From contig JBHHYT010000001.1 of the NCBI GenBank assembly GCA_046757705.1, positions 237-64,236 of the forward strand: a DNA stretch of 64,000 bases, read 5' to 3'. This DNA is from Thermodesulfobacteriota bacterium. Lineage in GTDB: Bacteria; Desulfobacterota; GWC2-55-46. Positions 23,034-37,970 of this stretch are shown in pieces (positions within the stretch are counted from its first letter, which is position 1; each line of letters begins with the position of its first letter). The notes under the pieces are model-generated. The model worked only from the letters and a program-made list of their open reading frames with translations, was not told where the DNA came from and made no database searches. The position numbers were made by a program, and so were the translations under genes.

Positions 23034-23945
23034 ATGAGCGGAAGCGGTACAGATACGGCCATGAGCCCGGTGGTCATACCGGAGCATTACAACTACGTGG
23101 CGGCGTTCCTGACGCTCGCCTGCAACCTCAAGTGCAGCTACTGCATAAACCGCTTCGGCGAGGACGGCTTCATAAAAAAGCGCCTCTCAGGCGAGCAATG
23201 GGTGGCGGGGCTCAACAGGATAGTATCCCGGCCGGACCTGCCCCTGACCCTTCAGGGCGGCGAGCCGAGTCTGCACAAGGACTTCATCTACATACTCAAC
23301 AACCTGAAGCCGGAGCTGAATATCGACATCCTCACAAACCTGCAGTTCGACGCCGACGAGTTCATCGCCAGGGTCGACCCCGACAGGATAAAGAGGGACG
23401 CCCCGTACGCATCGATACGCGTAAGCTACCACCCCTCGGAGATGGAGCTCGAGCCGCTTGCGCAGAAGGTATTGAAGCTGCAGAACGCCGGCTTCAGCAT
23501 CGGCATCTGGGCCGTGCTCCACCCCTCTCAGGAGAAGATAGTCCGCGCGGCGCAGGAGCACTGCAAGGGCCTGGGCATAGACTTCCGCTTCAAGGAGTTC
23601 CTCGGCGAGCACGAGGGGAGGATGTACGGCACCTACAAGTACGAGGGGGCGTGCGACCAGAGGTTCGAGAAGACTGTGCTATGCAAGACGACGGAGCTCA
23701 TCATGGGAAGCGACGGCAGCGTCTACAGGTGCCACAGCGACCTGTACGAAGGCAGGGAGCCCGTTGGTAACATCATCGACCCGGCCTTCGAGCTCGAGGA
23801 CATATACCGCGTCTGCGACGTCTACGGCCACTGCAACCCGTGCGACATAAAGGTGAAGACCAACAGGTTCCAGCAGTTCGGACACACCTCGGTGGACATA
23901 AAGCAAGCGCCGGGAGGGGAGAAGATAAAGGTCAATTCCTTTTAA
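23034..23945 (+). CDS. Radical SAM enzyme with C-terminal auxiliary Cys cluster (SPASM/twitch-like)
   Basis: 303 aa from ATG 23034. CNLKCSYC and LQGGEPSL. C-terminal CDQ...CKTT...RCHSD...CDVYGHCNPCD cysteine array. Confidence 0.7.
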   Translation: MSGSGTDTAMSPVVIPEHYNYVAAFLTLACNLKCSYCINRFGEDGFIKKRLSGEQWVAGLNRIVSRPDLPLTLQGGEPSLHKDFIYILNNLKPELNIDILTNLQFDADEFIARVDPDRIKRDAPYASIRVSYHPSEMELEPLAQKVLKLQNAGFSIGIWAVLHPSQEKIVRAAQEHCKGLGIDFRFKEFLGEHEGRMYGTYKYEGACDQRFEKTVLCKTTELIMGSDGSVYRCHSDLYEGREPVGNIIDPAFELEDIYRVCDVYGHCNPCDIKVKTNRFQQFGHTSVDIKQAPGGEKIKVNSF

Positions 23946-25590
23946 ACCGCACTATCGCCGTGCCGTCCCTCTCGTTCGAGAGCACGGTGAAGCGCCCTTC
24001 GTTGCCGAGTATCACCGGCGCCACGTACTCGCCCGCCTCTCTGTAGCACCCGTCAAGCAGTATGTAACTCACCTTCATGTCATCCATGAAACCGAGCATG
24101 GCGGCCCCGTCCGCCGTGTACGGGAACCTTACGGCAAATCCGCCGGTGATGAGCGAGACCAGCTCCGGCTTCCGGGTCATGATGACGTCCGCGGGGCCGG
24201 TCATGGCCTTGAGCCTCTCGGCGGCGCTCAGGTAGTTCCCGTAGCAGGGCACGGACTTGGCGAAGTAACCGGCGCCGAGGGCATCCGGCGCGGGCTCGGC
24301 GCTGACGGCCGCGAGGCGCGCTGGCATGGTGCCCGCCACGCGCAGGAACCTGCCCGCTGCGCGGGGGGTGAGGACGTCCCTTATCTCGAAGAGGTTAAGC
24401 GCCGCGAGCACGACGAAGGCCGCCAGGACAGCGCCGGCAAGGCCGCGGCCCGGGGCCCTTGCCCCGGCGCGCCCGATGGAGGACAGGAGCCTTACGCCGG
24501 CAAGGAAGTACCAGTAGATGAACGGGAGCACGGGCACGACGTACCTGCGCGCGTCACCGGAGCCGTAGACCGGCCAGACCGAGAGGAGGCCGAAGTAGAA
24601 GAACATGTAGAACTCCCTTACCGACCTCTTCCTCCACGCCTCGGAGACGAAGCCCACGAACGCCGGGACGAAGAAGATAAAGGTCAGCACGGAGAGGACG
24701 GGCCCGCGCGCGGCGTCCTTGGCCTCGGAAGAGCTGAATATGGTCCTGGCCACCGCGCCGTAGTAATAGAGGATGTTCTTCGCGAAACGGCCGGCCAGCG
24801 GGCCCGCCGCGAGCCCCCCGGAGTCCCTTGCGTAGTAGTCGGCCTGCATGAATATCGACTGGTAGGTAGCCACCCCGTGCGAGTAGATGCTGCCCCTTAT
24901 CGACCAGGCGGCGAAAGGCAATATGGCGAGCGCGCCGAAGAGGATGAGCTTTTTGCCCCATGCCGCCTTCTCCCCGCGCCCGGAGACGGCGCCGTAAAGG
25001 AGCGCGGCGGCCATGGCCGCCCAGAGCGTAATACCTATCATCCTCATCATGTAGGCGGCCGCCGTAAGCGCCGAGACCACTACGAGCAGGCGCGCGCTGA
25101 GGCCGCGCCTCTCGTACCTCCCGAACCAATGGAGCGCGAGCAGGGAGAGGAAGGCGTACGGCACCTCCGTCATTATCTCCTTGACGAAGAAGAGGAAGTA
25201 GAAGTTCGTGCCGACAAGGAACGCGAGCGCGAGCGCCATGCCCTGCCCGGCCTCCTCCTCGAAGTATGACTTGACCATCCAGACCGTGGCCACGCCGAAG
25301 CCCGCCACGACAAGCTGCATCCACGTGAAGTTGAAGCCGAAGAGGTAGAAGAACGGAGCGAGCAGGAGAGGCAACAGCGGCGGGTACTGCGTGTGCGCAG
25401 GGGCGCCCGGGACGTTTATGTCGGCGAAGCCGTGGCCCGTGGCTATCGACTTGGCGAGCATCACGTAGCTGATCCCGTCGCCTCCCCTTATGCCGGAGAG
25501 CATCCCGTTGATGAGCTGGACAAAGATGAAGACGCACAACGCCAGCACCGCGAGCAGGATGATGTCAGGTTTTTTTTTGAAGAATTCCAT
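23932..25590 (-). CDS. GT-C fold membrane glycosyltransferase, ArnT/PMT_2-like (GT39/GT83-type)
   Basis: 552 aa, about 11-13 TM. N-terminal loop GGDGISYVMLAKSIATGHGFADINVPGAPAHTQYPPLLPLLLAPFFYLFG matches the ArnT/PMT_2 pattern (D..Y...A..G.W....KPPL). 3' end overlaps the convergent radical SAM gene by 14 nt. Confidence 0.65.
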   Translation of the reverse strand: MEFFKKKPDIILLAVLALCVFIFVQLINGMLSGIRGGDGISYVMLAKSIATGHGFADINVPGAPAHTQYPPLLPLLLAPFFYLFGFNFTWMQLVVAGFGVATVWMVKSYFEEEAGQGMALALAFLVGTNFYFLFFVKEIMTEVPYAFLSLLALHWFGRYERRGLSARLLVVVSALTAAAYMMRMIGITLWAAMAAALLYGAVSGRGEKAAWGKKLILFGALAILPFAAWSIRGSIYSHGVATYQSIFMQADYYARDSGGLAAGPLAGRFAKNILYYYGAVARTIFSSSEAKDAARGPVLSVLTFIFFVPAFVGFVSEAWRKRSVREFYMFFYFGLLSVWPVYGSGDARRYVVPVLPFIYWYFLAGVRLLSSIGRAGARAPGRGLAGAVLAAFVVLAALNLFEIRDVLTPRAAGRFLRVAGTMPARLAAVSAEPAPDALGAGYFAKSVPCYGNYLSAAERLKAMTGPADVIMTRKPELVSLITGGFAVRFPYTADGAAMLGFMDDMKVSYILLDGCYREAGEYVAPVILGNEGRFTVLSNERDGTAIVRFKRN

Positions 25591-25610: not shown

Positions 25611-27347
25611 TTACACACCCGGCCTGCCGGCCCGTTTCCTCATCTCTTCTATACGCTCGATAGCGCGGAGCGCGTGCGCGTCCTGCGCGTCGAGCTTGAG
25701 CAGCTCTTTGAGCTCACCCTCCGCCTCGTCGAGAAGCCCGCGGCTCAAGTATAGCACGCCGAGGTTGTACCGGGCCTCTTTATTGCCCGGCTCGATCTCT
25801 ACGATCTCGCGCGTCTCTCTCGTGGCGTCCTCGTACGCCCCCCTGCCCACGTAGTACGCCGCCAGAGTCCTTCTTATGTAGACGGACGACGGGTTGAGCG
25901 CCTTGGCCGCGGTAAACTCCTTGAGCGCCTCGGCGTACATCCCGCGCTCGTAGTACTCTATGCCGAGGTACATGTGAGTGCTCGTTGAGTACGGGTTCTT
26001 CGCTACCTCCGAGGCGTAGAGCTCAAGCCTGTCGTTCCACAGGCCGTTGGCCCTGTACGTGGCCGCCGAGAACGGGAGCACCGGCACGACGAAGAGCAGG
26101 ACGGCTACCGTAGCCGGGGAGATGGACAGGGCGCGCCTCTTGAACACCTCACGTCCGTAGAAGACGGCCGAGACGAAGGTAAGCGCCATGCCGATGGACG
26201 GCAGGTACATCCTGCGCTCGTTGAACGGGTCCTTTATCGGTATCACCGATGACTCCACCGAGAGGGTTACGAAGAACCAGACGAGCCCCAGAGAAGCGAG
26301 AAGCCCCCACCGGTTGCGCGCGCGCACGGAGCGCACGAGGAGGTACGCGGTAAAGAGGATAAGCGCCGCGAGCGCCACCGAAGAGGCTACGACGGCCGGG
26401 TCGAAAAATCTATCCGTGACAGGAAAGTGGTAAAGGAAACCCCCGTGGACAGGGTAGAAGAGGAGCCTTATATAGGTGACCACCACCCACGTCTCGGTCA
26501 GGAGGTACCCGAGCCTCGATATGCCTCCAGCCTCTTCGAGCTTATGCGCCCTCATAAGCTCCTCGACGCCGCTGCCGCTGCCCATTACGCCAAGCTCCGG
26601 CAGGATGAGGCCGAGTGGGATTATAAGCGCGGCGATGAAGAACGGGGCGAGGTAGAGGGCTCGCCTGGACGCCTTGGTGCCCTCACCACTGCCGAAGAGC
26701 ACCGCTTCGAAGGCGAGCATCACGAACGGTATCGTAAAGCTTATCTCCTTGGTCTTCATGGCAAGGACCGTAGAGGCGAGAGAGGCCGCGTACAGGACGG
26801 CGTGGAGGCGCCGTTGCTTGCCGCCTTTTTCATGGAGCAAGCGCGCCTTCATGAAGCAGAGCACGGCGGCGAGGTAGAAGAGAGCCGCCAGTGAGGCGTA
26901 CCTCTGGCTTATGTAGGTGACGGCCTGCACCTGCATGGGATGGACGAGGAAGATGGCCGAGACCGCGAAGGCCGCCGACAGGGGCACGGCAGCGTCGGTG
27001 CCCGTGGACGCGGCGAAGGGGCGCGAGAGGGCGGGCGCATCGAAGAGCGCAAGGACGAGAAAGAAGACTAGCACAGAGTTGGATATGTGGATGGCTATGT
27101 TTACGAGGTGGTAGCCGAAGGTGTGCAGACCGTTGACGGAATAGTTGAGCGCGAACGAGAGGTCCCCCACGTACCTCATCCCCGCGGGCACGAGGAAGTT
27201 GCCAAGCGACTTCACCCAGTCGTTCTCGACGATAAACAGCCTGTCGTCGAATACGAACGGGCCTGAGAAGGCGTTCGAGTAGACCAGAAGCCCGGCGGCA
27301 ACGAGCACGAGCGGGAGGCATATGCGTGAGTAAGACGGTCTGTCCAT
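25611..27347 (-). CDS. TMTC-like membrane protein: DUF1736-type polytopic N-domain + C-terminal TPR repeats (putative GT-C glycosyltransferase)
   Basis: About 579 aa from ATG 27347. FSGPFVFDD motif in first loop. Multiple TM helices. C-terminal TPR array (YLGIEYYERGMYAEALKEF..., YNLGVLYLSRGLLDEAEGEL). Confidence 0.55.
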   Translation of the reverse strand: MDRPSYSRICLPLVLVAAGLLVYSNAFSGPFVFDDRLFIVENDWVKSLGNFLVPAGMRYVGDLSFALNYSVNGLHTFGYHLVNIAIHISNSVLVFFLVLALFDAPALSRPFAASTGTDAAVPLSAAFAVSAIFLVHPMQVQAVTYISQRYASLAALFYLAAVLCFMKARLLHEKGGKQRRLHAVLYAASLASTVLAMKTKEISFTIPFVMLAFEAVLFGSGEGTKASRRALYLAPFFIAALIIPLGLILPELGVMGSGSGVEELMRAHKLEEAGGISRLGYLLTETWVVVTYIRLLFYPVHGGFLYHFPVTDRFFDPAVVASSVALAALILFTAYLLVRSVRARNRWGLLASLGLVWFFVTLSVESSVIPIKDPFNERRMYLPSIGMALTFVSAVFYGREVFKRRALSISPATVAVLLFVVPVLPFSAATYRANGLWNDRLELYASEVAKNPYSTSTHMYLGIEYYERGMYAEALKEFTAAKALNPSSVYIRRTLAAYYVGRGAYEDATRETREIVEIEPGNKEARYNLGVLYLSRGLLDEAEGELKELLKLDAQDAHALRAIERIEEMRKRAGRPGV

Positions 27348-27449
27348 ATCTGGCGTATTATATAACAGCGGTGTGCCGGAGTTGAAATAAAAAAAGAGGA
27401 GGGGCTTTGCGGCCCCTCCTCTTCTCATGTCTTCGTCAGCTCACCCGCA

Positions 27450-27851
27450 TTAAGGGGTGTTGGCGAATACGAACCTGCCGTTGTAGAAGACAATGGAGTT
27501 GTTGTCAGGCAGACTGGCAGCGGTCGTCTTCAGGTGGATAAGACCACTTGAAAGGGTCATGGTACCCGCGCCGTTCAGTGTTATGTTGGCTGAAGGCTGA
27601 TAACCGCCCTCTTTGAGCTTGGCGAGCGTGTCGACCGTCTCGCTCGGGAAGTCGGTCAGATACGCCTGCGCGGCAGTGTAGGCGTTCTTTGTGTCTGAAT
27701 CGAGCGCTGTCTTGTAGCCCCTCAGTCTGTACTTCGAGAACTGCGGGATGGCTATAGCGGCCAGTATCGCTATGATAGCAACGACTATCAGGAGCTCGAC
27801 CAGCGTGAAGCCCTCTTCCCTCTTGATCCTTTTGAGCATGTCTTGTAGCAT
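27450..27851 (-). CDS. pilA: Type IVa major pilin PilA (Geobacter-like N-terminal domain, Cys-less)
   Basis: Prepilin leader ...KREEG|FTLVELLIVVAIIAILAAIAIPQFSKYR. First about 60 mature residues closely resemble G. sulfurreducens PilA-N as recalled. No Cys. S/T-rich C-terminal half. GGAGG Shine-Dalgarno. Confidence 0.85.
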   Translation of the reverse strand: MLQDMLKRIKREEGFTLVELLIVVAIIAILAAIAIPQFSKYRLRGYKTALDSDTKNAYTAAQAYLTDFPSETVDTLAKLKEGGYQPSANITLNGAGTMTLSSGLIHLKTTAASLPDNNSIVFYNGRFVFANTP

Positions 27852-27952
27852 GTGGACCTCCTTTCACCTCTGTTGAATGTTAAAGCTTTTTTATAACTTC
27901 GGATGTTGCCATAAAAACTTGAATCAAACTTGAATCGAATTTGATTTACTAA

Positions 27953-27975
27953 TATTGCAAGTGACGTGCCAAAGC
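27953..27975 (-). promoter_or_regulatory. Sigma-54 (-24/-12) promoter for pilA
   Basis: Minus strand reads cTTTGGCACgtcacTTGCAatatt = TGGCAC-N5-TTGCA, the exact RpoN consensus, about 100 nt upstream of the pilA ATG. Consistent with the sigma-54 enhancer-binding protein PilR encoded upstream. Confidence 0.6.
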
Positions 27976-28218: not shown

Positions 28219-30534
28219 TTACCTCGCGCCGGTCTTCCTTCCGGGGGGCGCGGGGGCCGGAGGGCGGCCCTCAAGAAGGGCCTCTATGGCCGCGGCCTTC
28301 GCGGTCCTGCCGGCGGCGCGGTGGCTTTCGGCGAGCTTTCCGAGAGCACCGGCGTAATCGGGCTTGTTCTCGATGGCGAGCGCGTAGTACCCGGCCCCTT
28401 CCTCGAACCCGCCTGTCTCGAAGAGTGTGTTTCCGAGCGAATAATATATGTCCGCGAGCTCGGCCATGTCGTCGGTAAGGAAGGCCGCGCGCCTGAAGTT
28501 GACAGTGGCGTCCTCGAGGGCGCCCGTCTCGAAGTACGCACCGGCTATGGTCTTGTAGGCTATCTGCTCGCTGGAGTCGTCGGCGAGCTTCAGGTATCTT
28601 TTCAGGTAGCGGACGGCGTTGCCGTAGTCCTGCAAGTCGTAGTACGCCACCCCCGCACCGAGCAGGCCGTCCTTGTAATCCCCGTCGAGGTCCACCGAGG
28701 CCATGAAGGCGCCGAGGGCCTCCTCCTTCTTATTCAACTTCCCGTAGACCGTGCCGAGCGTGTAGAAGGTCCTGGCGTCGGGGGCGATACCCACGGCCCT
28801 GCCGAGCTCCGCCACCGCTTCCTCGCCGAGGCCGAGCTTCGAGTCGACGAAGCCGAGGAGCCTGTGGGGGCGCGCGTACCCCGCTACCGACCCGTCCTTG
28901 AGCATCCGCACAAGCTCGGCCCTTGCCGCCTCGAGCCCGCCCTTGTCCTCGGGCAGGTCCTTTATCTCCTCGGCGCAGGCGTTCAGCCCGCTTATGCCGT
29001 ACCTCGATAACACGTCCCTGAACCTCGGCGTGTCCTTGAGGTAGAGGATGGAGGTATCGTCGAAGGCCACCGCCTTCCACCCCTCGTTGTCGTGGAGCTT
29101 GCCGCACAGCGGGTCCCTGAGCTTTATAAGCGCCATGTCTATGGAGTATTCGCCGGTAAGCCTGCTCCACCTCCCGGGGTCGGTCACGAGCCTGCTCTTC
29201 CAGAAAAAGTACGGTGAATATACCGTGGGGGTCCTGCCGTCGATGAACACCTTGAGCTCGGGGTAGTAGAATATCAGGTAACCCCCGTAGACGTACTCGT
29301 TGTAGATGTTGCCGGCAAGGTGCTCCCTCTTCATGAACTCGACCGTGCCGGACGGGTACGAGCCGTGCTTTAGCCCCAGCCCCCTGTCCGCGGCCTTCGC
29401 GGCGCCGAGGTAGTCCCTGAACATGACCGCGGCCAGAAAAACGGCGAGCAGGGCGGCGCACCACCGCAGGGCGCGCAGATGCCCCGGCCTCTGCGCGAGC
29501 ACCGGGGCTATGTTGGCGGCGAGCACCGGGGCGGCGAAGAAGCAGAAGAGGCCGAGCCACCTGACGTGGGATACGCCCATGTAGAGCGCTGCGGCCAGGA
29601 GCATCAGGTCTCTGGCCTTTACGCGCTTGAAACTGAGGGCGAGCGCCGCCGCCGTGCAGACCAGGAGCACGATAAAGGCGAAGTGGTCGAGCGGGAACGG
29701 GTAGAAGTAGAAGAAGAGCTCCTTGAATTGCGGCCTTATCCACTCGCCTATGTGGCGTATGGCGTCGGCGTTGCCCGGGCTGTTGTGCACAAAGGGGAAG
29801 AGCAGCAAACGCGGTCCGTACGGGTTTACGAGGGAGGCCACGGGCATGGCCACCGCGGCCAGCAGGTACCTCCTGGCCCTTGAGGAAAGGTCCAGCCTGA
29901 AGCTGTACCCCCCCTGCCTGAACTCGTCTATGACCTGCCCGCCGAAGTAGGAAAAAGCGATGAACGTGCCGAGCACGGCGCTCGAATGCATGTTGATCCA
30001 CACCACCTGCGCGGGCACAAGGAGATACAGGTATATCGGGTTGGACCTCTTCTCATGGAGGGTGAACAGGAGCAGGTACAGGGTCACGAAGAAGAACTCG
30101 AAGAGGTGCGGGCGCACGAAGAACCTCGTGTGCGCGCCGACGAAGGCCAGAAAGAGGACGGCCACGGCAAGCCAGAGCCTGCCCGTTAAAAGGCGAAGGT
30201 TGATGAACAGGGCGGCGAGCGTGAGCGAGACGAGACCCACCTGAAGGAGGAAGAGCCCCGCCCACCCGCCGAGGTATGCGTAGAAGAGGTGCGCGAGCAC
30301 CTGAAAGCCCCAGGTAAAGTCCACCCAGGGGTGCCCGGCGAAGGTGTAGGAGAACGGGTCCGTGGCGGGCACCCTCGAGTGGGAGACGATCCACTCCCCG
30401 CTCCTCAGGGCCCATAGTATGTCGGTGTCCCAGTGCTGTTTCTGAAAAGAGATAAGTACGACGAGGGCGCCGAGCGCCACAAGGAGACAGACGCTTATTG
30501 CCTTTCCCGGTTGTTCACTCCTCGGAGATTTCAT
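28219..30534 (-). CDS. Large polytopic membrane protein with C-terminal TPR repeats (uncharacterised; GT-C-like glycosyltransferase candidate)
   Basis: 771 aa. N-terminal about 420 aa with more than 10 predicted TM helices and WDTD motif after TM1. C-terminal 300 aa TPR repeats (TLGTVYGKLNKKEEALGAF, AGVAYYDLQDYGNAVRYLKRYLKL...). Start overlaps the pilR stop. Confidence 0.45.
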   Translation of the reverse strand: MKSPRSEQPGKAISVCLLVALGALVVLISFQKQHWDTDILWALRSGEWIVSHSRVPATDPFSYTFAGHPWVDFTWGFQVLAHLFYAYLGGWAGLFLLQVGLVSLTLAALFINLRLLTGRLWLAVAVLFLAFVGAHTRFFVRPHLFEFFFVTLYLLLFTLHEKRSNPIYLYLLVPAQVVWINMHSSAVLGTFIAFSYFGGQVIDEFRQGGYSFRLDLSSRARRYLLAAVAMPVASLVNPYGPRLLLFPFVHNSPGNADAIRHIGEWIRPQFKELFFYFYPFPLDHFAFIVLLVCTAAALALSFKRVKARDLMLLAAALYMGVSHVRWLGLFCFFAAPVLAANIAPVLAQRPGHLRALRWCAALLAVFLAAVMFRDYLGAAKAADRGLGLKHGSYPSGTVEFMKREHLAGNIYNEYVYGGYLIFYYPELKVFIDGRTPTVYSPYFFWKSRLVTDPGRWSRLTGEYSIDMALIKLRDPLCGKLHDNEGWKAVAFDDTSILYLKDTPRFRDVLSRYGISGLNACAEEIKDLPEDKGGLEAARAELVRMLKDGSVAGYARPHRLLGFVDSKLGLGEEAVAELGRAVGIAPDARTFYTLGTVYGKLNKKEEALGAFMASVDLDGDYKDGLLGAGVAYYDLQDYGNAVRYLKRYLKLADDSSEQIAYKTIAGAYFETGALEDATVNFRRAAFLTDDMAELADIYYSLGNTLFETGGFEEGAGYYALAIENKPDYAGALGKLAESHRAAGRTAKAAAIEALLEGRPPAPAPPGRKTGAR

Positions 30535-31912
30535 ATTTGCTAAGTTTATACCTCATCGACCGGAAGGAGAGCCCGAGCAACTCGGCCGCCCTCTTCTTCA
30601 CCCCCCCGGTCTTCTTGAGCGCGTCCATTATAATAGCCTTCTCGAACTCCTCGATGGTCTTCTCAAGGTCGACGCCCTCAGGGGGCACCTCGAGCGCCTC
30701 CACGTTCCCCGCGGCCGGCACGGCCGCCGCGCCCGCCTTTTGCGCCATGTACTGCGGCAGGCTGCCGGCGTGTATCGTATCGGTCGGCTCCAGCGTTACG
30801 GCCCGCTCTATAACGTTCTCCAGCTCCCTGACGTTGCCGGAGTACTGGTGCTCTAAGAGCAGGGCCATGGCCTGCTCGGATATCGTCTTCACCTGCTTGC
30901 CGAGCTCAGCATTATACTTGTCCATGAAGTGTCTTGCAAGCAAAGGAATGTCTTCTTTCCTCTCGCGCAGCGGCGGCATGTCTATCCTTATCACGTTGAG
31001 CCTGTAGAAGAGGTCCTCCCTGAACCTCCCGGCCTCGACCTCCGCCTCCAGGTCCCTGTTGGAGGCGGCGATAAGGCGTATGTCCACGGTAACGTCGCTG
31101 GTGCCCCCCACCCTCCGGAAGCTCCGCTCCTGAATGAAGCGCAGGAGCTTTACCTGCAGGTGGAGCGGCAGCTCCGTTATCTCGTCGAGGAAGAGCGTGC
31201 CGCCGTCGGCCTCCTCCGCCAGCCCGGCCTTGCTCGATACCGCCCCGGTAAAGGCGCCCCTGATGTGCCCGAACAGCTCGCTTTCAAGGAGGTTCTCCGG
31301 TATCGCCCCGCAGTTTATGGCGACGAACGGGGCGTCCCTCCTGTCGCTCTCAAAGTGTATGGCGCGGGCCACGAGCTCCTTGCCGGTGCCGCTCTCTCCC
31401 GTTACGAAGACGTTCGTCCTGGTACGCGCTATGCTCCTTATAAGGCCGTAAAGCTCCGTCATGCGCGAGGAGGTGCCGATGAGGTTCGAGTACCCGAACC
31501 GGGTCTTCATGTCCTGCTTGAGCAGGCGGTTCTCCTTCTCCAGGTGCTTGTGCTTGAGCGCCTTTTTTATGTTCAGCTTCACCTCGTCCACATTGAAGGG
31601 CTTGGTGAAGTAATCGAAGGCCCCGGCCTTCATGGCCTCTATGGCCGTCTCCACGGAGGCGTATGCGGTGACCATTATGACGGTCGTCTCCGGGTCGAGC
31701 TCCTTGAGCGCGCGGGTAAACTCCACCCCGTTCATGCCCGGCATCCTCAGGTCTGTTATGACGAGGTCTGCGTGGTTGCTCCGGCAGAACTCGAGGGCCG
31801 CGGGCGCGCTCTCCATGGCGCGGGCGTCGTAGCCTTCCTTGCGGAGCATTATCTCGAGGAACTCCCTCATGTCCCTCTCGTCGTCTACTATCAGTATCAT
31901 CTCTTTAGCCAT
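30515..31912 (-). CDS. pilR: Sigma-54-dependent response regulator PilR (REC-AAA+-HTH)
   Basis: 465 aa. REC (ILIVDDE...DLVITDLRMPGMNG). AAA+ sigma-54 activator motifs (VFVTGESGTGKE, GAFTGA, ESELFGH). C-terminal Fis-type HTH. Confidence 0.85.
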   Translation of the reverse strand: MAKEMILIVDDERDMREFLEIMLRKEGYDARAMESAPAALEFCRSNHADLVITDLRMPGMNGVEFTRALKELDPETTVIMVTAYASVETAIEAMKAGAFDYFTKPFNVDEVKLNIKKALKHKHLEKENRLLKQDMKTRFGYSNLIGTSSRMTELYGLIRSIARTRTNVFVTGESGTGKELVARAIHFESDRRDAPFVAINCGAIPENLLESELFGHIRGAFTGAVSSKAGLAEEADGGTLFLDEITELPLHLQVKLLRFIQERSFRRVGGTSDVTVDIRLIAASNRDLEAEVEAGRFREDLFYRLNVIRIDMPPLRERKEDIPLLARHFMDKYNAELGKQVKTISEQAMALLLEHQYSGNVRELENVIERAVTLEPTDTIHAGSLPQYMAQKAGAAAVPAAGNVEALEVPPEGVDLEKTIEEFEKAIIMDALKKTGGVKKRAAELLGLSFRSMRYKLSKYEISEE

Positions 31913-31933: not shown

Positions 31934-33622
31934 TTAATGTAGTGTGGCGCCCTCGGCGAGGACCGGGAGCACTATGGTAAAGACCGTCCCGCCTCCGGCG
32001 TCGCTCTGTACGTCTATCCTTCCGCCGTGCGTCTCTATTATCCTGTGGACGATGGCAAGGCCGAGGCCCGTGCCCGAATCCTTGGTGGAGAAGAACGGGT
32101 CGAATATCCTGAGCAAGTCTTCCCGGTCTATGCCCGTGCCCGTGTCCGCCACGGTCACCGAGACGGTGGCTGGCTCCTCGCCTGCGTCCCCGGAGACCCC
32201 CGCCTCCCCTGCCCCGGGGCTCAGGTGCGAGGAGACGGCAAGGGTGCCCGAGCCGCTCATGGCGTGGGCGGCGTTGAGGAATAGGTTCCAGAAGACCTGC
32301 CCGAGCTGCCTTGCGTCGGCCTTTATGAAGACGCTTCCCGGCAGGTCGCTCTCTATGCCTATATCCGAGGCCTCCGGGGCGTTGGCGAACAGCTGTATCG
32401 TCTCGCCTATTATGGCGTTCAGGTCCACTACCTCCCTTGTCTCCCGCGCCGGGCGCGCGAAGAGCAGATAGTCGGTAATGAGCATGTTGAGCCTGCTCGT
32501 CTCGCGCAGCACTATCTCCATGAGCTTGTTGTTATCCCCGTCGAGGCTCACCTCGTCCTTCAGGACCTGTATGGAGCCGCTTATCGACGCCAGCGGGTTG
32601 CGTATCTCGTGGGCTATGCCCACGGAGAGCTCGCCGAGGGCCTTCAACTTCTCGTCCCTCCTGAGCTGCTCCTCCATGGCGCGAAGCCGCGTGAGGTCCT
32701 GGAAGATGATGATGCTGTCGACATCCCCGCCCTGGCCCCGGGAGACCGAGAACCCGAGGAATATCTCCTCTCCGTCCTTCTTCCTGAACTTCTTCTCGAC
32801 ACGCGCGCCCACTCGCGCGGCGCGCTTGCCGCTTGAAAGCATGTCAGGGAAGAACTCCCTTACGTCCTTGTGGTAGACCTCTTTGGCGGAGTAGCCGGTA
32901 ACCGACTCGGCCTCCCTGTTGAAGGATGTTATCCTGTGGTTGCCGTCGAGCGTCATTATGCCGCTCGTTATGTTCTCCACTATGTGCCGGTTGAGCCCCT
33001 CGAGCTTTACGAGGTCGGTCTCCTTCTCCTCGAGCTTCTTCTCTACCTTGGCCGTCTTCTCGGCGAGATACCCGGTAAGGTAGGCCACCGTGAAGAAGGC
33101 GAGGATGTTGGTGGCGACCGTCATGAAGACGTCCTCCCAGCCGGGCTGGAGCGCCGTGGAGGGAAGCACCTTGAAGCGCGCCGGGAGCATGTTGTAGAAG
33201 TCCGCGTCCATCAGCACGCCGTAGGAGATGGACGAAAGGGAGGCCGCGTACAGCCCCCCCCTCATGCCGACCATTATCGTGGCGCCGATCACGGAAAGGG
33301 GGTAGAGTATCTGCAGGTAGCTCTCCGTGCCCCCTGTAACGTAGACGATAACGCTCGTAAGGACGATGTCGACCGTTACCTGCAAGTAGACGAACAGGCG
33401 CAGGTTCCTTACCCTGCCCAGGGCGAGGGCGTAGAATATCGTGAGGAAACCCACGACCGCCACTATAAAATACAGGGGCTGGAAGTTCAGCCGCGTATAC
33501 GAGTATTCCCTTACCTGAAACCAGGTGGTGATGCCGAGGAAGGCCAGAGCGAGCACCACCCTCAACACCATCATGGCCAGAAGTTTGCCCTTGAGCGTAT
33601 TTTGGGTAGATGCCTGTGCCAT
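31934..33622 (-). CDS. pilS: Sensor histidine kinase PilS (multi-TM, PAS, HisKA, HATPase)
   Basis: Six TM helices N-terminal. PAS region. H-box GIAHEIRNPL. N, G1, G2 boxes (DTGTGI, GTGLGLAIV). Start set at ATG 33622 (MAQASTQ). Confidence 0.75.
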   Translation of the reverse strand: MAQASTQNTLKGKLLAMMVLRVVLALAFLGITTWFQVREYSYTRLNFQPLYFIVAVVGFLTIFYALALGRVRNLRLFVYLQVTVDIVLTSVIVYVTGGTESYLQILYPLSVIGATIMVGMRGGLYAASLSSISYGVLMDADFYNMLPARFKVLPSTALQPGWEDVFMTVATNILAFFTVAYLTGYLAEKTAKVEKKLEEKETDLVKLEGLNRHIVENITSGIMTLDGNHRITSFNREAESVTGYSAKEVYHKDVREFFPDMLSSGKRAARVGARVEKKFRKKDGEEIFLGFSVSRGQGGDVDSIIIFQDLTRLRAMEEQLRRDEKLKALGELSVGIAHEIRNPLASISGSIQVLKDEVSLDGDNNKLMEIVLRETSRLNMLITDYLLFARPARETREVVDLNAIIGETIQLFANAPEASDIGIESDLPGSVFIKADARQLGQVFWNLFLNAAHAMSGSGTLAVSSHLSPGAGEAGVSGDAGEEPATVSVTVADTGTGIDREDLLRIFDPFFSTKDSGTGLGLAIVHRIIETHGGRIDVQSDAGGGTVFTIVLPVLAEGATLH

Positions 33623-33745
33623 TTTCAGTCTTTTAACCGGTTGCCGAAGAATGCCGCCCCTGGCCTGTTCCAGCCGCAAGCTGGCCCGGGTCAATCGGTC
33701 CAGTCATCGTGGATTGCCGGCCTGCCGCGCCTTTACCGCGGCCTC

Positions 33746-34966
33746 TTAACCGGCCGCGGCCCCCGCGATCTGGAATATCGGAAGGTACAGGGCGATGACG
33801 AGCCCGCCTACCACCACGCCGAGGAAGGCCATCAGCAGCGGCTCGATGAGCGAGGTAAGGGCGTCCACCGCGGCGTCCACCTCGTCCTCGTAGAAGTCCG
33901 CTATCTTCGTGAGCATCGCGTCGAGCGCGCCCGTGGACTCGCCCACGGCTATCATCTGCGTTACCATCCCGGGGAAGACCTTCGTCTCGATGAGCGGGTC
34001 AGCCAGCGTCTTGCCCTGGCTGAGGCTCGTGCGGGCCTTCATTATGGATTCCTCTATGACGACGTTGCCGGAGGTCTTGGAGACTATCTCGAGGGCCTCT
34101 AGGATGGGCACGCCGCTCGAGAGCATGGTCCCGAGAGTGCGGGTAAAGCGCGCCACGGCCGTCTTTTTTATCAGGTCGCCGAAGACGGGCACCTTGAGGA
34201 TGAACTTATCGATGACCTTCCTGCCCTTCTGCGTCTTGTACGCCCGGTTTATGGCTACCCCGATGCCGACCATGCCGCCGATAATCAGGTACCAGTAGTT
34301 CTTCAGGGCGTTGCTGAGGTTGACGACTATCTGCGTGGGCGCGGGCAGTGCCTGCCCGAAGCCCTCGAACATATCCTCAAAGACCGGCACGACCCATATG
34401 AGCAGGCCGGAGACGACAAGGCAGGCTATGATGATGACCACTACCGGGTAGGTCATGGCGCTCTTGACCTTCGTCTTGAGCTTCTCGGCCTTTTCGAGGA
34501 AGCCGGAGAGCCTGTCGAGGATGGTATCGAGTATGCCGCCGACCTCTCCGGCGGCGATGAGGTTGACGTAGAGCTCATCGAAGACCTTCGGGTGCTTCTT
34601 CAGGGCGTCCGCGAAGGTAGTGCCGCCCTCGACCGAGCTCTTGACGTCGACGAGGACCTTCTTGAACTCCGGGTTATCCTGTTGTGAGGCGAGTATCTCA
34701 AGGCACTGCACCAGAGGCAGGCCCGCGTCTATCATGGTGGAGAACTGGCGGCTGAATATGACCAGCTCCTTGGTCTTGACCCCCCTTGAGAGCCCCGGTA
34801 TCTTGAGCCCGCCGAGCGAGAACCCGGCCTTCTTCTGGTTTATCGAGGCCGGTATTATCTGCTGGCGCCTGAGGGCGGCCGTTGCCTGCGCCATGTTTGC
34901 CGCCTGCACCTCGCCCTTCCTCATCTCGCCGCCTATGGTCTTACCGCTATATACGAAAGTAGGCAT
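33746..34966 (-). CDS. pilC: Type IV pilus inner-membrane platform protein PilC (GspF family)
   Basis: 406 aa. Two GspF repeats. Conserved FSRQFSTMIDAGLPLVQCLEIL and FTRTLGTMLSSGVPILEALEIV. Confidence 0.9.
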   Translation of the reverse strand: MPTFVYSGKTIGGEMRKGEVQAANMAQATAALRRQQIIPASINQKKAGFSLGGLKIPGLSRGVKTKELVIFSRQFSTMIDAGLPLVQCLEILASQQDNPEFKKVLVDVKSSVEGGTTFADALKKHPKVFDELYVNLIAAGEVGGILDTILDRLSGFLEKAEKLKTKVKSAMTYPVVVIIIACLVVSGLLIWVVPVFEDMFEGFGQALPAPTQIVVNLSNALKNYWYLIIGGMVGIGVAINRAYKTQKGRKVIDKFILKVPVFGDLIKKTAVARFTRTLGTMLSSGVPILEALEIVSKTSGNVVIEESIMKARTSLSQGKTLADPLIETKVFPGMVTQMIAVGESTGALDAMLTKIADFYEDEVDAAVDALTSLIEPLLMAFLGVVVGGLVIALYLPIFQIAGAAAG

Positions 34967-36090
34967 TACGTCGTCCTCCCTTGCGGCATACCGGTTCTGA
35001 CGCCGGCGTTGGATAGCATCTGGCGGAGCTCATCCGGCTCCTGGCTTCTCCCGGTAGCCTCCTCAAGCGTTATAAGCCTTCTTGTGTAGAGGTTCATAAG
35101 GCTCTGGTTCATCGTCTGCATGCCGAACCGGCTCTGTCCGACCTGCATCTGGGAGTATATCTGGTGGACCTTGTCCTCCCGTATGAGGTTCCTTATGGCC
35201 GCGTTCGGCAGCATCAGCTCTATGCAGGAGACTCTGCCCTTGTTGTCCGCCCTCGGCACGAGCAGCTGTGAGATGACGGCCTCGAGGACGAACGAGAGCT
35301 GCGCCCTTACCTGCGGCTGCTGGTGGGAAGGGAAGACGTCTATGATCCTGTTTATCGTCTGAACGCAGGAGTTTGTGTGCAGGGTGGCAAAACACAGGTG
35401 GCCTGTCTCCGCTATGGTCAGCGCCGTCTCTATGGTATCCATGTCCCTGAGCTCGCCGAGGAGAACGACATCGGGGTCCTGGCGCAGGATGTACTTGAGC
35501 GCCTTTTTAAAGGCGAAGGTGTCATACCCGACCTCCCTCTGGTTCACCAGGGCCACCTTGGAGTTGTGAAGGTACTCGATGGGGTCCTCGATGGTTATTA
35601 TGTGCTCGGGCCTCTCGGAGTTTATCTTTTCTATCATGGAGGCGAGCGTGGTGGACTTTCCGCTTCCGGTCGGGCCCGTTACGAGGACGAGGCCGCGCGG
35701 CTTTTTGCAGATATCCTCGAGTATGGGGGGCAGGCCCAGCTCCTGAAAGGAGAGTATCTTGAAAGGAATGGTGCGGAAGACCCCCGCAACGGTGCCCCTC
35801 TGAACGAAGAGGTTGCCCCTGAAACGGCTCAACCCCTTTATGCCGAAGGAGAAGTCGAGCTCGTTCTCCTCCTCGAACTTATGCTTCTGGACGTCTGTCA
35901 GGATGGAGTAGCACAGCTGCCTGGTGATGACACCGTTCAAAGCCGGGCCGCTCATCGGGGTGAGCCTTCCGTCCACCCTGACCCTCGGCGGACTGCCGGC
36001 GGCCACATGGAGGTCGGAGCCGCCTTGTTCTATCATTACCCTCAGAAGTTCCTGTAAAGAGCCTTTAACTCCGCCAGCTTCGACTGCCAT
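34966..36090 (-). CDS. pilT: Twitching-motility retraction ATPase PilT
   Basis: 374 aa. Walker A GPTGSGKSTT. DIHV/His box. Typical PilT length. 1-nt overlap with pilC. Confidence 0.9.
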   Translation of the reverse strand: MAVEAGGVKGSLQELLRVMIEQGGSDLHVAAGSPPRVRVDGRLTPMSGPALNGVITRQLCYSILTDVQKHKFEEENELDFSFGIKGLSRFRGNLFVQRGTVAGVFRTIPFKILSFQELGLPPILEDICKKPRGLVLVTGPTGSGKSTTLASMIEKINSERPEHIITIEDPIEYLHNSKVALVNQREVGYDTFAFKKALKYILRQDPDVVLLGELRDMDTIETALTIAETGHLCFATLHTNSCVQTINRIIDVFPSHQQPQVRAQLSFVLEAVISQLLVPRADNKGRVSCIELMLPNAAIRNLIREDKVHQIYSQMQVGQSRFGMQTMNQSLMNLYTRRLITLEEATGRSQEPDELRQMLSNAGVRTGMPQGRTT

Positions 36091-36227: not shown

Positions 36228-37928
36228 TCAGTCGGCCATGGTGACCCTGAGGACCTCTTCGATGGTGGTAACGCCTTCGGCGACCTTTGTGATGCCGCTC
36301 ATCCTCAAGGACTTCATGCCGTCCTTGATGGCCTGCCTCTTTAGCTCGGCGGTGGAAGCGCCGTTGAGGACGAGGTCCTTGATGGACTCGGTAAACGGCA
36401 TCACCTCGTAGAGCGCGATCCTGCCCTTGTAGCCGGTGCCCCCGCAGGTGGCGCACCCCTTGCCCTTGTAGCACTCTATCTTGTGGGCCTCCTCGGGAGG
36501 GACCCCGAGGTCGACGAAGACGCTCTCGTTGATGGGGAGCTTCTCCGAGCATTCCTTGCAAATCTTGCGGGCGAGCCTCTGGGCAAGGATGAGGTTGCAG
36601 GCCGAGGAGACGAGAAAGGGCTCGATGCCCATGTTCAGAAGCCTGTTGACGGTCGAAGGGGCGTCGTTGGTGTGCAGTGTCGAAAGGACGAGATGCCCGG
36701 TGAGCGCCGCCTTGATGGCTATCTCGGCGGTCTCGTAGTCCCTTATCTCACCGACCATGATGATATCGGGGTCCTGACGCAGGAAGCTCCTCAGAGAGGC
36801 GGCGAAGTTGAGCCCTATGTCCTCGTGCATCTGGACCTGATTGATGCCCATCAGGTTGAACTCCACAGGGTCTTCGGCCGTGGAGATGTTCTCGCTTGTC
36901 TTGTTGAGCTCCGAGAGCGCGGAGTAGAGCGTCGTGGTCTTGCCGGACCCCGTGGGCCCCGTTACCAGCACGATACCCCAGGGCTTGTGGATGGCGTCCA
37001 TCAAGTGGTTGAGCGCCGTCTCCTCGAAGCCGAGCTTGGTCATGTCGAGCTGCAGGTTGCTCTTGTCGAGGAGCCTCAGGACGACCTTCTCGCCGAAGAG
37101 CGTCGGCAGGACCGATACCCTGTAGTCCATCTCCTTTTTACGGGAGAGTTTCAGCTTGATACGGCCATCCTGCGGGAGCCTGCGCTCGGCTATGTCGAGC
37201 TGGCTCATGATCTTTATCCTCGACACTATCGCGTTCTTGAGCTTCAGAGGGGGCTTCATCACCTCCATCAGAACGCCGTCTATCCTGTACCTGACGCGGA
37301 AGCTCTTCTCGTATGGCTCTATGTGGATGTCGCTTGCGCCCTTCTTTATGGCGTCGGTGAGTATCAGGTTGACGAGCTTTACGACCGGGGCGTCCTCGAC
37401 GGCCTTTTTCAGGTCCGACAGGTCGACCTCGTCCTCTTCCTTGACTATCTCCATCTCGTCGTCGTCGAACTCAGTAAGCACCCCTTCGAGACCCATCATC
37501 TCCGAGGTGTCGTAGAGAGTATCGATGGCGGTCTTGATGGCGGCGTCCGAGGCCACCAGCGGCTCGACGTTGTAGCCGGTGAGGAACTTTATGTCGTCGA
37601 TGGCGAATATGTTGGAAGGGTCCGCCATGGCGACCACCAGCGTTGAGCCGGTGCGGCTTACGGGTATTACCTGATACTTCTGGGCTACGTCCTCCGGGAT
37701 GAGCTGTATGACCTCATGGTCTATGTCCTGTGTAGCTAGGTCGATGGTGGGTATCCCGTACTGCCTGCTGAGGAATGCCGTAAGGTCCTTCTCGCTTATG
37801 TAGCCGAGCTTGGTCAGGTTGTACCCGAGCCTTCCGCCGCTCTTCTTCTGCTCGTCGATAGCGGTCTTGAGCTGCTCCGGGGAGATAAGTTTTTCTCTGA
37901 GTAGAAGCTCGCCTATTCTGTCTGTCAT
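36228..37928 (-). CDS. pilB: Type IV pilus assembly ATPase PilB (GspE family)
   Basis: N-terminal MTDRIGELLLREKLISPEQLKTAIDEQKKSGGRLG... (GspE N1 domain). Walker A GPTGSGKTTT. CxxC-x-CxxC tetracysteine (CKECSEK...CATCGGTG). Confidence 0.9.
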   Translation of the reverse strand: MTDRIGELLLREKLISPEQLKTAIDEQKKSGGRLGYNLTKLGYISEKDLTAFLSRQYGIPTIDLATQDIDHEVIQLIPEDVAQKYQVIPVSRTGSTLVVAMADPSNIFAIDDIKFLTGYNVEPLVASDAAIKTAIDTLYDTSEMMGLEGVLTEFDDDEMEIVKEEDEVDLSDLKKAVEDAPVVKLVNLILTDAIKKGASDIHIEPYEKSFRVRYRIDGVLMEVMKPPLKLKNAIVSRIKIMSQLDIAERRLPQDGRIKLKLSRKKEMDYRVSVLPTLFGEKVVLRLLDKSNLQLDMTKLGFEETALNHLMDAIHKPWGIVLVTGPTGSGKTTTLYSALSELNKTSENISTAEDPVEFNLMGINQVQMHEDIGLNFAASLRSFLRQDPDIIMVGEIRDYETAEIAIKAALTGHLVLSTLHTNDAPSTVNRLLNMGIEPFLVSSACNLILAQRLARKICKECSEKLPINESVFVDLGVPPEEAHKIECYKGKGCATCGGTGYKGRIALYEVMPFTESIKDLVLNGASTAELKRQAIKDGMKSLRMSGITKVAEGVTTIEEVLRVTMAD

Positions 37929-37970
37929 AGTCCCTGCGGTCGATTGAGGTGACAAAAGTTGTCAAAGTCC

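Follow-up and report, generated by a model that had tools for sequence, protein, structure and literature searches.

A probable PilSR- and sigma-54-controlled type IVa pilin without cysteines, and its membrane-TPR neighbours, in an uncultured Thermodesulfobacteriota bacterium

The pilin gene described here, pilA (27450..27851, minus strand), lies in a 64-kb stretch of DNA (64,000 nucleotides; the window) from an uncultured Thermodesulfobacteriota bacterium of the sulfate-reducer type and comes right after pilB-pilT-pilC-pilS-pilR, all on the minus strand. The extension ATPase PilB (36228..37955) carries an MshEN (c-di-GMP-binding) N-terminal domain and scores 818 bits against TIGR02538 (cutoff 676), the retraction ATPase PilT (34966..36090) scores 482.6 bits against TIGR01420 (cutoff 319), and the platform protein PilC (33746..34966) has a T2SSF domain, its score with the Myxococcus-type PilC model of NCBIfam being 592 bits, under the 700-bit cutoff. 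The sensor histidine kinase PilS (31934..33694) was recognised by its 6TM_PilS domain and the sigma-54-dependent response regulator PilR (30515..31912) by the combination of Response_reg, Sigma54_activat and HTH_8. Between pilR and pilA stands a gene (28219..30534, minus strand) whose 771-aa product is a polytopic membrane protein ending in a TPR domain, the latter assigned from Pfam matches; the gene shares 20 nt with pilR at the pilR stop. Beyond pilA, on the same strand, lie genes for a 578-aa predicted GT-C-fold membrane glycosyltransferase, also with a C-terminal TPR domain (25611..27347), and for a 552-aa membrane protein, possibly a second GT-C enzyme (23932..25590). No pilMNOPQ, pilD or minor-pilin genes occur within the 64-kb window, so the complete pilus machine is not seen there.

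Signals for expression surround pilA on the minus strand. A sigma-54 (-24/-12) promoter, TGGCACGTCACTTGCA (27956..27971), matches the consensus about 105 nt before the start codon and is the sole perfect match to TGGCAC-N5-TTGCW in the 64 kb; TGGCA[CT]-N5-TTGCA stands at the equivalent site before homologous pilin genes in five related loci (L001, L003/L004, L085 and L086). In Geobacter, pilA expression is sigma-54-dependent. Alignment of upstream regions further revealed a 5'-UTR element, GATTCAAGTTT, present here in two tandem copies (27915..27936) and kept in relatives as the single copy TGATTnAAGTTTT. A strong Shine-Dalgarno sequence, AGGAGG, was read 5 nt before the ATG (27857..27862), and the same hexamer precedes the pilin genes of related loci. 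A strong intrinsic terminator, made up of a T-run and a 15-bp stem in which 8 pairs are G-C, begins 24 nt past the pilA stop (27391..27426); it falls inside the 5' end of a mechanically listed 605-aa ORF. The real start of the downstream gene is 27347, 102 nt past the pilA stop, and its product corresponds to a 578-aa NCBI protein (P0121) with 100% identity and coverage.

The product of pilA is a 133-aa prepilin, of which the leader (residues 1-14) is encoded at 27810-27851, the mature pilin of 119 aa at 27453-27809 and the stop codon at 27450-27452. The translated precursor begins MLQDMLKRIKREEG, is cleaved between G14 and F15, and continues as FTLVELLIVVAIIAILAAIAIPQFSKYRLRGYKTALDSDTKNAYTAAQAYLTDFPSETVDT...FANTP; its signal peptide is of class III, showing G-1, F+1 and E+5 at the cleavage site ...REEG/FTLVELLIVVAII. 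It exceeds the curated cutoffs of both prepilin models, with 34.8 bits for Pfam N_methyl PF07963 (cutoff 21.2) and 30.4 bits for TIGR02532 (cutoff 16.3), and a scan of all six frames found no other prepilin motif in the window. An identical NCBI protein (P0001, 100%) from a Thermodesulfobacteriota MAG is labelled prepilin. The NCBIfam PilA equivalog models all score far under their cutoffs (Myxococcus PilA, for example, 52 against 400), and the name PilA is therefore given by context and fold. The sequence-only reading had placed the ORF exactly, leaving out its strand, and had rightly taken the product for a full-length type IV pilin without cysteines. Its count of 12 aromatics is also correct (F1, F24, Y27, Y32, Y44, Y50, F54, Y70, F108, Y109, F113 and F115; 10.1%), although the mature protein is 119 residues long, not about 115. 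The mature pilin has 0 Cys and 21 Ser plus Thr; the C-terminal part, described earlier as about 55 aa and rich in Ser and Thr, in fact comprises 66 aa, of which 14 (21%) are Ser or Thr, a moderate enrichment.

As judged from database alignments, the pilin belongs to a coherent, lineage-specific family of small pilins from uncultured bacteria, comprising more than 100 clusters and at least 120 homologs with 60-89% identity over their full length. Cysteine is lacking from 116 of the 117 members with a recognisable cleavage motif; their mean mature length is 120 aa, and the mean aromatic fraction of the family is about 8.7%. Eight aromatic positions (F1, F24, Y27, Y/F32, Y44, Y50, Y70 and Y/F109) are essentially invariant across the family, and T58, S73, T85 and S/T95 are conserved.

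The AF2 model of the pilin (pLDDT 87) has an alpha1 helix of about 50 residues, a short helix in the alpha-beta loop and a small antiparallel sheet, and the predicted fold is that of a canonical minimal pilin of type IVa. Foldseek placed gonococcal, Thermus and Neisseria pilins at the top of its PDB matches, which were weak (best E 0.016); matches of the family profile to the PDB run through the N-terminal helix only. When the head domain alone was compared with 1.84 billion representatives, the only matches were six clusters of small pilins, a single lipoprotein variant and short stretches of large repetitive proteins, the last of which we regard as compositional. The usual C-terminal D-region disulfide cannot form, there being no Cys in the pilin, but major pilins without Cys have been documented (PMC11046646) and the missing D-region does not, therefore, exclude membership of the type IVa major pilins. 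Conservation within the family suggests how the head might be held together in the absence of this disulfide: a conserved C-terminal segment of aromatic and hydrophobic character, V-[FY]-[FY]-N-G-R-[FI]-x-[FL], may have taken over its role. We propose that the aromatics of this segment are buried, and that most of the 'extra' aromatics would belong to the structural core rather than to an electron path.

Taken with its position, which we could confirm to be within a pilBTC-pilSR-pilA cluster of the Geobacter/Myxococcus type and behind a sigma-54 promoter, these features point to the protein as this bacterium's major type IVa pilin (PilA), under the control of PilSR and sigma-54, a reading to which we assign a probability of roughly 0.8. 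By analogy with established type IVa biology, PilS and PilR would act with sigma-54 to turn on pilA transcription; a prepilin peptidase encoded outside the window would remove the 14-aa leader and methylate F1; and PilB and PilC would assemble the subunits into a fibre by way of their hydrophobic alpha1-N, leaving PilT to retract it.

The sequence-only reading pointed to a likeness to Geobacter PilA-N. Among solved structures, the N-terminal half is indeed nearest to PilA-N chains (7tgg_A, E 2e-17; 9egp_A; 2m7g_A), which score 57-66 bits when the single sequence is the query and 72-84 bits when the family profile is used. Ungapped identity to G. sulfurreducens PilA-N is 33/61, using a sequence whose aligned part was confirmed via the PDB alignment. 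The description of the two as near-identical in pattern holds for residues 1-28 (25/28) and fails for residues 29-55, where identity drops to 8/27. Nor is the likeness specific to Geobacter: the first 28 residues already share 21/28 with P. aeruginosa PAK and 21/28 with M. xanthus PilA, and many full-length pilins of Zetaproteobacteria, Nitrospirota, Gemmatimonadota and others are, among the matches listed, closer to PilA-N. Of the six aromatics of the G. sulfurreducens protein, F1, F24, Y27 and Y32 coincide, three of these four being generic to type IVa pilins, and F51 and Y57 do not; the pilin here has Y44 and Y50 instead, comparable to Y44 and F50 of M. xanthus. What is shared with Geobacter PilA-N (GSU1496; PDB 2M7G, 6VK9 and 7TGG; 9EGP of G. 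metallireducens) is a signal peptide of class III, its leader being similar, these four aromatics, the IPQF-x-x-YR and SD-x-x-N motifs and the same pilBTC-pilSR-pilA cluster, to which a sigma-54 promoter can be added here. What differs is the length, 119 aa with a folded head of its own as opposed to the roughly 60 aa, alpha1 only, of the truncated mature pilin, and the setting, since no GSU1497-like (PilA-C) gene adjoins pilA: the 578-aa GT-C/TPR gene lies downstream and the 771-aa TM/TPR gene upstream. In loci with truncated pilins that we used for comparison, a 106-152-aa protein with a signal peptide is encoded 9-57 nt downstream. On these alignments the likeness to PilA-N, though genuine, is a trait of the class, that of a broad clade of deltaproteobacterial-type pilins with IPQF-x-x-YR-x-[RK]-[AG]-[YF]...SD-x-x-N, and points to no particular kinship with Geobacter's truncated or split pilin.

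A possible relation of another sort is that the pilin represents the unsplit, ancestor-like form of PilA-N plus PilA-C, in which case its C-terminal 66 residues would correspond to PilA-C, and the earlier reading saw here its relevance to the full-length ancestors of truncated pilins. The PilA-N chains are the best sequence matches of known structure, and both the leader (MLQ..L...) and the gene cluster resemble those of Geobacter; moreover, pilin head domains diverge fast, so that missing sequence similarity to PilA-C is not in itself decisive. We nevertheless consider this origin highly improbable. The head family was compared by hhalign with PilA-C, using an alignment of 11 proteins from loci of MAG relatives where they lie next to truncated pilins, and with the C-terminal halves of long pilins (152-200 aa mature). 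It gave a probability of 0.1% (E 0.44) with the former and E 0.97 with the latter, whereas the control comparison of PilA-C with the long pilins' C-terminal halves gave E 4e-4 and a common K-H-x-x-G-D-x-x-Y motif that is absent here. A phmmer search of the PDB with the 67-aa C-terminal part did not find PilA-C, its sole match being phage Gp12 at E 4.6, which we attribute to chance, and no stand-alone, PilA-C-like version of the head was found among the 1.84 billion representatives. The lengths disagree as well (119 aa mature here, compared with 61 + 104 for PilA-N and PilA-C; PMC11046646), and the part of ancestor to the gene fission has already been assigned to Gura_2677 and other long full-length pilins of Geobacter (PMC5174107); 10.1101/668343 gives Gura_2677 a mature length of 193 aa. 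Pilins of the Gura_2677 type (from G. uraniireducens and from three further loci, L018, L028 and L033, with pilH-like ABC-transporter genes downstream in L018 and L033) are of the same N-terminal class, but they measure 190-200 aa when mature and end in a domain related to PilA-C that bears the K-H-x-x-G-D-x-x-Y motif, and the 119-aa pilin has neither that domain nor the motif. Given that its head has no detectable relation to PilA-C or to the long pilins' C-terminal halves, the pilin is not the unsplit ancestor of the Geobacter pair, and we rejected this reading. Testing heads for the PilA-C motif in this way tells genuine unsplit relatives (about 190-200 aa) apart from small unrelated pilins, and is useful in mining metagenomes for 'e-pilins'.

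Whether the pilin might itself be an 'e-pilin', the subunit of a conductive pilus in which stacked aromatics carry electrons, can be put to the in-silico rule stated in 10.1101/668343, which asks for at least 9.8% aromatics, for aromatics at positions 1, 24, 27, 50/51 and 32/57, and for no aromatic-free gap above 22 aa. The aromatic fraction (10.1%) lies above the threshold and F1, F24, Y27, Y32 and Y50 occupy the positions, but the largest gap, residues 71-107 between Y70 and F108, is 37 aa, beyond the limit and also beyond the 22-35 aa of the conductive pilins reported in that source. Three family members (P0003, P0006 and P0025) do keep within the 22-aa limit, and conductivity has been reported for pilins of 110-182 aa expressed in Geobacter (10.1101/118059; 10.1101/668343); on the other side, the family as a whole averages fewer aromatics than the rule demands, and the head holds five of the 12, four of them in the C-terminal segment, where they alternate with aliphatics in relatives as core positions would. 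The concept of the e-pilus is itself disputed, since the Geobacter nanowires resolved by cryo-EM are cytochrome polymers and the PilA-N/C pilus conducts poorly (PMC12954529; PMC9207759), and we judge a conductive role very unlikely. The long, aromatic-dense 'putative e-pilins' of Walker 2018 and Bray 2019/2020 resemble the present pilin in exceeding 100 aa, in an N-terminus like that of Geobacter, in an aromatic content near 10% and in the aromatics at 1, 24, 27, 32 and 50/51, as given in 10.1101/118059 and 10.1101/668343, and differ from it as regards the gap limit, which it breaks (37 aa). Its real category is nonetheless theirs, the already described long aromatic-dense pilins of Deltaproteobacteria and other phyla, and it is a fresh member of this known kind, full-length with a Geobacter-like N-terminus and about 10% aromatics; the main texts of the two preprints do not name the Cys-free family. 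This combination is a widespread class trait, and is evidence of neither e-pilin function nor split-pilin ancestry. It is very unlikely, too, that the pilin forms a short, mainly secretory pseudopilus in the periplasm, as has been proposed for PilA-N/C of G. sulfurreducens, instead of a retractile pilus outside the cell. The cluster encodes the retraction ATPase PilT and no gsp genes occur in the 64-kb window; there are weak matches to the N-terminal regions of GspG and GspH, but with GspG the score is 27 bits, where the cutoff is 88.85, and reflects the shared N-terminal helix only, and on this score and the gene context a T2SS pseudopilin was rejected. The shared cluster type and the secretory or sensing roles proposed for the Geobacter pilus (PMC12954529) would suit a pseudopilus, yet the fold is nearest to a bona fide external-pilus subunit, PilA4 of Thermus thermophilus (PDB 6XXD), the major pilin of the wide pilus. 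PilA4 is likewise a small full-length type IVa pilin of similar size (125 aa chain) with alpha1 and a compact beta-sheet, and the sequence profile aligns with it over residues 15-94; it differs in having 17% identity only and in coming from another phylum and gene context.

The neighbourhood, with a TfpW-like GT-C/TPR enzyme and the 771-aa membrane-TPR protein, is a more interesting lead than the pilin. The glycosyltransferase-like neighbour noticed in the sequence-only reading exists. Its AF2 model (pLDDT 91.5) has a membrane domain whose best Foldseek matches are AglB (7e9s_A, TMq 0.42) and PglB (5ogl_A, TMq 0.39), TPR matches in Pfam cover residues 484-593 of its ORF, and in an F-x-F-D-D motif D34 is invariant and D35 nearly so across 45 aligned sequences. 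The membrane domain has no Pfam match (E <= 1), and a PDB search with the single sequence returned TPR matches only; JGI labels some homologs 'protein O-mannosyl-transferase'. A predicted GT-C domain with a DD motif and a C-terminal TPR domain, encoded directly past pilA, is also the architecture and location of TfpW (10.1101/2020.04.19.049825), the GT-C arabinosyltransferase of P. aeruginosa group IV pilin, whose gene likewise follows a pilin gene and encodes a polytopic protein with a first-loop DD motif and a large C-terminal TPR domain. By architecture and position, TfpW can serve as a model of how Ser and Thr of the pilin might be O-glycosylated in the periplasm, and glycosylation of the pilin is plausible by this analogy: the adjacent GT-C/TPR protein is a candidate O-glycosyltransferase that could act there on conserved Ser and Thr in the sheet and the alpha-beta loop (T58, S/T61, S73, T85 and S/T95). 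Unlike tfpW, however, the gene is parted from pilA by a strong terminator and adjoins it in three of five related loci, being missing from the other two, which makes the link to glycosylation weaker than for tfpW; the family, moreover, is very large (more than 3000 matches) and the protein may serve many substrates.

The 771-aa protein is the more constant companion. A membrane-TPR protein of roughly 760 aa stands between pilR and pilA in all five loci examined, making it an invariable partner of the Cys-free pilin family, and many of its 254 homologs share contigs with family members. Its N-terminal 545 aa have no Pfam match (E <= 1), and PDB searches with the single sequence and with the family profile returned TPR matches only. 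It is a tentative and somewhat doubtful suggestion that this protein has co-evolved with the Cys-free head as a new kind of factor devoted to modifying or assembling the pilin. If so, candidates for its nature would include a distantly related GT-C/OST-like enzyme and a periplasmic chaperone standing in for stabilisation by the disulfide, and the pilin would be half of a lineage-specific pair, with up to three membrane glycosyltransferase-like proteins building the pilus surface. The membrane-TPR neighbours suggest that pilin glycosylation or dedicated assembly factors may be common in uncultured Thermodesulfobacteriota. Pairwise BLASTP detected no paralogy among the three large membrane proteins (771, 578 and 552 aa). 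The 552-aa protein has a weak PMT_2 match (E 1e-4; 22.9 bits, under the 26.1-bit cutoff); absent from L003/4 and L085, a counterpart is present in L001 and, going by size and position only, probably in L086.

The window's pilin gene, pilA, occupies 27450..27851 on the minus strand (133 codons and a stop), exactly where the sequence-only reading had placed a pilin, with a Shine-Dalgarno sequence, AGGAGG, 5 nt upstream of its ATG. Its product carries a prepilin motif that clears the curated thresholds of both Pfam N_methyl and TIGR02532, and cleavage at G14|F15 leaves a mature protein of 119 residues that begins FTLVELLIVVAIIAILAAIAIPQF. Translation confirmed the description of a cysteine-free pilin (no Cys in the mature sequence) with 12 aromatic residues (10.1%; F1, F24, Y27, Y32, Y44, Y50, F54, Y70, F108, Y109, F113 and F115). 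The first estimates of about 115 mature residues and a head of about 55 become 119 and 66 when counted, and the head, supposed to be Ser/Thr-rich, has a moderate content (14 of 66 residues, from 21 in the mature protein). Annotation as a prepilin was already known: NCBI lists the identical protein, which comes from a MAG of Thermodesulfobacteriota (64,365-bp contig), under the name 'prepilin-type N-terminal cleavage/methylation domain-containing protein'. We read it as the major type IVa pilin in an uncultured lineage of Thermodesulfobacteriota.

The pilin's family numbers at least 120 clusters at 60–89% full-length identity to it, nearly all of them from uncultured Deltaproteobacteria/Thermodesulfobacteriota. 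The 117 family members having a recognisable cleavage site average 120 aa in mature length and 10.5 aromatic residues, and 116 of them are cysteine-free. In the family alignment, precursor residues 1–67 hardly vary, and the head varies more; aromatics are essentially invariant at positions 1, 24, 27, 32, 44, 50, 70 and 109, while positions 54, 78, 108, 113 and 115 are aromatic in some members and aliphatic or otherwise in the rest. The AlphaFold2 model of the window's pilin, built on a 54-sequence alignment, has a mean pLDDT of 87 (at least 90 from about residue 45 to 110) and comprises an alpha1 helix (17–67), a short helix (76–81) and a small sheet. The missing D-region disulfide is a trait of the whole family, and pilins without it have precedent (PMC11046646); a conserved C-terminal aromatic or hydrophobic strand may stand in for the disulfide. 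A head-only search of 1.84 billion representative proteins matched no more than six clusters of small pilins, a single lipoprotein variant and brief segments of repetitive proteins, so the head is limited to this family. The variant, a homologous protein of 111 aa (P0369), carries the C-terminal part of alpha1 and a relative of the head, preceded by a signal peptide of the lipoprotein type (…LLVGFVGC|SG…) that replaces the prepilin N-terminus, in effect a putative pilin head re-used as a lipoprotein.

Resemblance to PilA-N, the N-terminal half of the split Geobacter pilin, is real: PilA-N heads the solved structures by both single-sequence and profile comparison. In the single-sequence search, PilA-N of G. 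sulfurreducens and of G. metallireducens scored 57–66 bits, whereas M. xanthus PilA reached 39.5 bits and no other structure exceeded 36 bits; a family profile left the ranking unchanged. The proposal of a Geobacter-like N-terminus holds over residues 1–28, where identity to PilA-N is 25/28, although P. aeruginosa PAK pilin and M. xanthus PilA already reach 21/28 each; over residues 29–55 it falls to 8/27 (M. xanthus 5/25, PAK 3/26). G. sulfurreducens PilA-N has aromatics at six positions, and the window's pilin shares four of them (1, 24, 27 and 32), three of which (1, 24 and 27) are common to type IVa pilins in general; F51 and Y57 of PilA-N have no counterpart, whereas Y44 and F50 of M. xanthus are matched by Y44 and Y50. 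Conservation thus goes somewhat beyond that generic to alpha1, yet without Geobacter-specific aromatic spacing, an outcome close to a refutation of the proposal. A PilA-N scan of species-representative genomes yielded many listed pilins nearer to PilA-N than the window's pilin is, and the nearer ones among the matches listed include full-length pilins from MAGs labelled Zetaproteobacteria, Nitrospirota, Gemmatimonadota and Bdellovibrionales. Over residues 29–55, the nearest to the window's pilin among the matches listed are a full-length deltaproteobacterial pilin (locus L058) and a truncated Geobacteraceae pilin (L008), each at 14/27. The likeness is a class signature, that of a deltaproteobacterial-type N-terminal class common to Geobacter PilA-N and the window's pilin.

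The same N-terminus had been thought relevant to the debate over truncated e-pilins and their full-length ancestors. A published conservative e-pilin rule asks for at least 9.8% aromatics, aromatic-free gaps of no more than 22 aa, and aromatics at 1, 24, 27, 50/51 and 32/57 (10.1101/668343). The window's pilin has the density and the positions; its gap of 37 aa between residues 70 and 108 exceeds the limit and lies beyond the 22–35 aa of pilins reported to be conductive. Position 78 is aromatic in 63% of family members, which shortens the gap there, and a few members satisfy the full rule. Pilins longer than 100 aa that combine a Geobacter-like N-terminus with a comparable density of aromatics have been on record since 2017 (10.1101/118059), and cryo-EM has identified Geobacter nanowires as cytochrome polymers and the PilA-N/C pilus as poorly conductive (PMC12954529; PMC9207759); the window's pilin hence contributes little to that debate. 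Descent of the split pilin from a protein of this kind was considered alongside 11 PilA-C proteins (106–129 aa, with their own signal peptides, downstream of truncated pilins) and four longer full-length pilins (152–200 aa mature). Gene fission of long full-length pilins, Gura_2677 among them, has already been described as the origin of the split pilin (PMC5174107). Gura_2677 is 193 aa in its mature form (10.1101/668343), and PilA-N and PilA-C comprise 61 + 104 residues (PMC11046646) against 119 here. With the lengths in disagreement and Gura_2677-type ancestors already assigned, we rejected the window's pilin as the unsplit ancestor of the split pilin, with some reserve given how fast pilin heads diverge. 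Nor does it belong to the truncated e-pilin type. Five loci from the scan (L015, L016, L022, L023 and L025) hold a PilA-N-type pilin of about 60 aa followed within 9–57 nt by a PilA-C-type signal-peptide protein. Their MAGs are labelled Thermodesulfovibrio/Nitrospirota, Desulfobacula, Syntrophobacteria and Desulfocapsa, so that, if binning is right, the split arrangement extends beyond Desulfuromonadales.

Directly upstream of pilA and on the same strand, domain and profile matches identify pilB (TIGR02538, 818 bits), pilT (TIGR01420, 483 bits), pilC, pilS (6TM_PilS and histidine kinase domains) and pilR (receiver, sigma-54 activator and HTH_8 domains). A sigma-54 promoter, TGGCACGTCACTTGCA (27956-27971, minus), lies about 105 nt upstream of the pilA start codon and is the sole perfect match within the 64-kb window; a -24/-12 element likewise precedes the homologous pilin genes of five related loci. 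The stop codon is followed by a terminator (15-bp stem and T-run), which falls within a 605-aa ORF of the mechanical listing (start 27428), so that this start is an artefact; the real start of the downstream gene is 27347, matching a 578-aa NCBI protein at 100% identity and coverage. By a six-frame motif scan, pilA is the window's only prepilin gene. Promoter, terminator, neighbours and the single prepilin together predict a monocistronic pilA controlled by PilSR and sigma-54, an arrangement long known in Myxococcus and Geobacter. Between promoter and RBS, the 5'-UTR contains GATTCAAGTTT duplicated in tandem (27915-27936, minus); related loci conserve one TGATTnAAGTTTT copy, then CCGAAG, at the equivalent place, and the repeat may be a regulatory site or RNA element. 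PilB (36228-37955, minus) has an N-terminal MshEN-type c-di-GMP-binding domain (NF053729, 69 bits; Pfam MshEN), which suggests that pilus extension is under c-di-GMP control.

Most worth following are two membrane proteins beside pilA, a conserved membrane-TPR partner of 771 aa and a TfpW-like enzyme of 578 aa. The former, polytopic with C-terminal TPR repeats (28219-30534, minus), sits between pilR and pilA, with a 20-nt overlap at the pilR stop, and keeps its position in all five related loci, an invariable partner of the pilin; its 254 homologs are all about 760 aa, many on contigs bearing pilin family members. Neither Pfam nor sequence comparison with solved structures yields a match for its 545-aa N-terminal membrane domain. 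Among the family's conserved motifs (DPFSYTF-G-PWVDFTWGFQ, W-N-HSS and GGYLIY...VFIDGRTPTVY), the last faintly recalls the WWDYG region of oligosaccharyltransferases.

The 578-aa protein (25611-27347, minus), directly downstream of pilA, ends in TPR repeats, and a high-confidence prediction gives it a membrane domain of GT-C fold. Over that domain, its model (pLDDT 91.5, pTM 0.91) best matches AglB (TMq 0.42) and PglB (TMq 0.39), both GT-C oligosaccharyltransferases. Past the first transmembrane helix, the family alignment has a conserved F-x-F-D-D motif in which D34 is invariant and D35 nearly so, and JGI labels some homologs 'protein O-mannosyl-transferase'. A further membrane protein of 552 aa (23932..25590, minus) has a PMT_2 match below threshold and a counterpart, judged by size and position, in about three of the five related loci. 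Glycosylation of conserved alpha-beta-loop Ser/Thr (T58, S/T61, S73) on the window's pilin is a reasonable inference from these neighbours. Those residues lie in a region that we take to be equivalent to that of Neisseria Ser63 and Pa5196 Thr64/Thr66. In architecture and gene position the 578-aa protein is TfpW/TMTC-like, TfpW being the GT-C enzyme that O-glycosylates the group IV pilin of P. aeruginosa (10.1101/2020.04.19.049825), but the link is weaker here than for tfpW because a terminator intervenes, the gene adjoins the pilin gene in only 3/5 related loci and its family is very large. At four loci from the scan (L021, L027, L032 and L060; MAGs of Geobacteraceae, Gemmatimonadota and Syntrophobacter), other small full-length pilins with PilA-N-like N-termini are directly followed by a large polytopic membrane protein, that of L021 bearing a C-F-V-D-D motif like the 578-aa protein; pairs of pilin and membrane-glycosyltransferase-like genes may be common.

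Divergent from the pilin, a plus-strand cluster (15805-23945) conserved beside it in all related loci examined encodes a radical SAM/SPASM protein, a TPP-dependent E1 dehydrogenase alpha subunit, a transketolase-like beta subunit, a GT2, a B12-binding radical SAM protein, a small ORF, a GT9-like protein and another radical SAM protein; it could supply the GT-C enzymes with an unusual sugar or lipid-linked donor, or be unrelated to them. Elsewhere, a 435-aa SLH-domain protein and a CsgG-like protein (a weak match, 23.4 bits against a 20.8-bit cutoff) are encoded at 49939-53252 (minus), beside ORFs without a family match and downstream of an Mla (MlaD/E/F-like) transporter.
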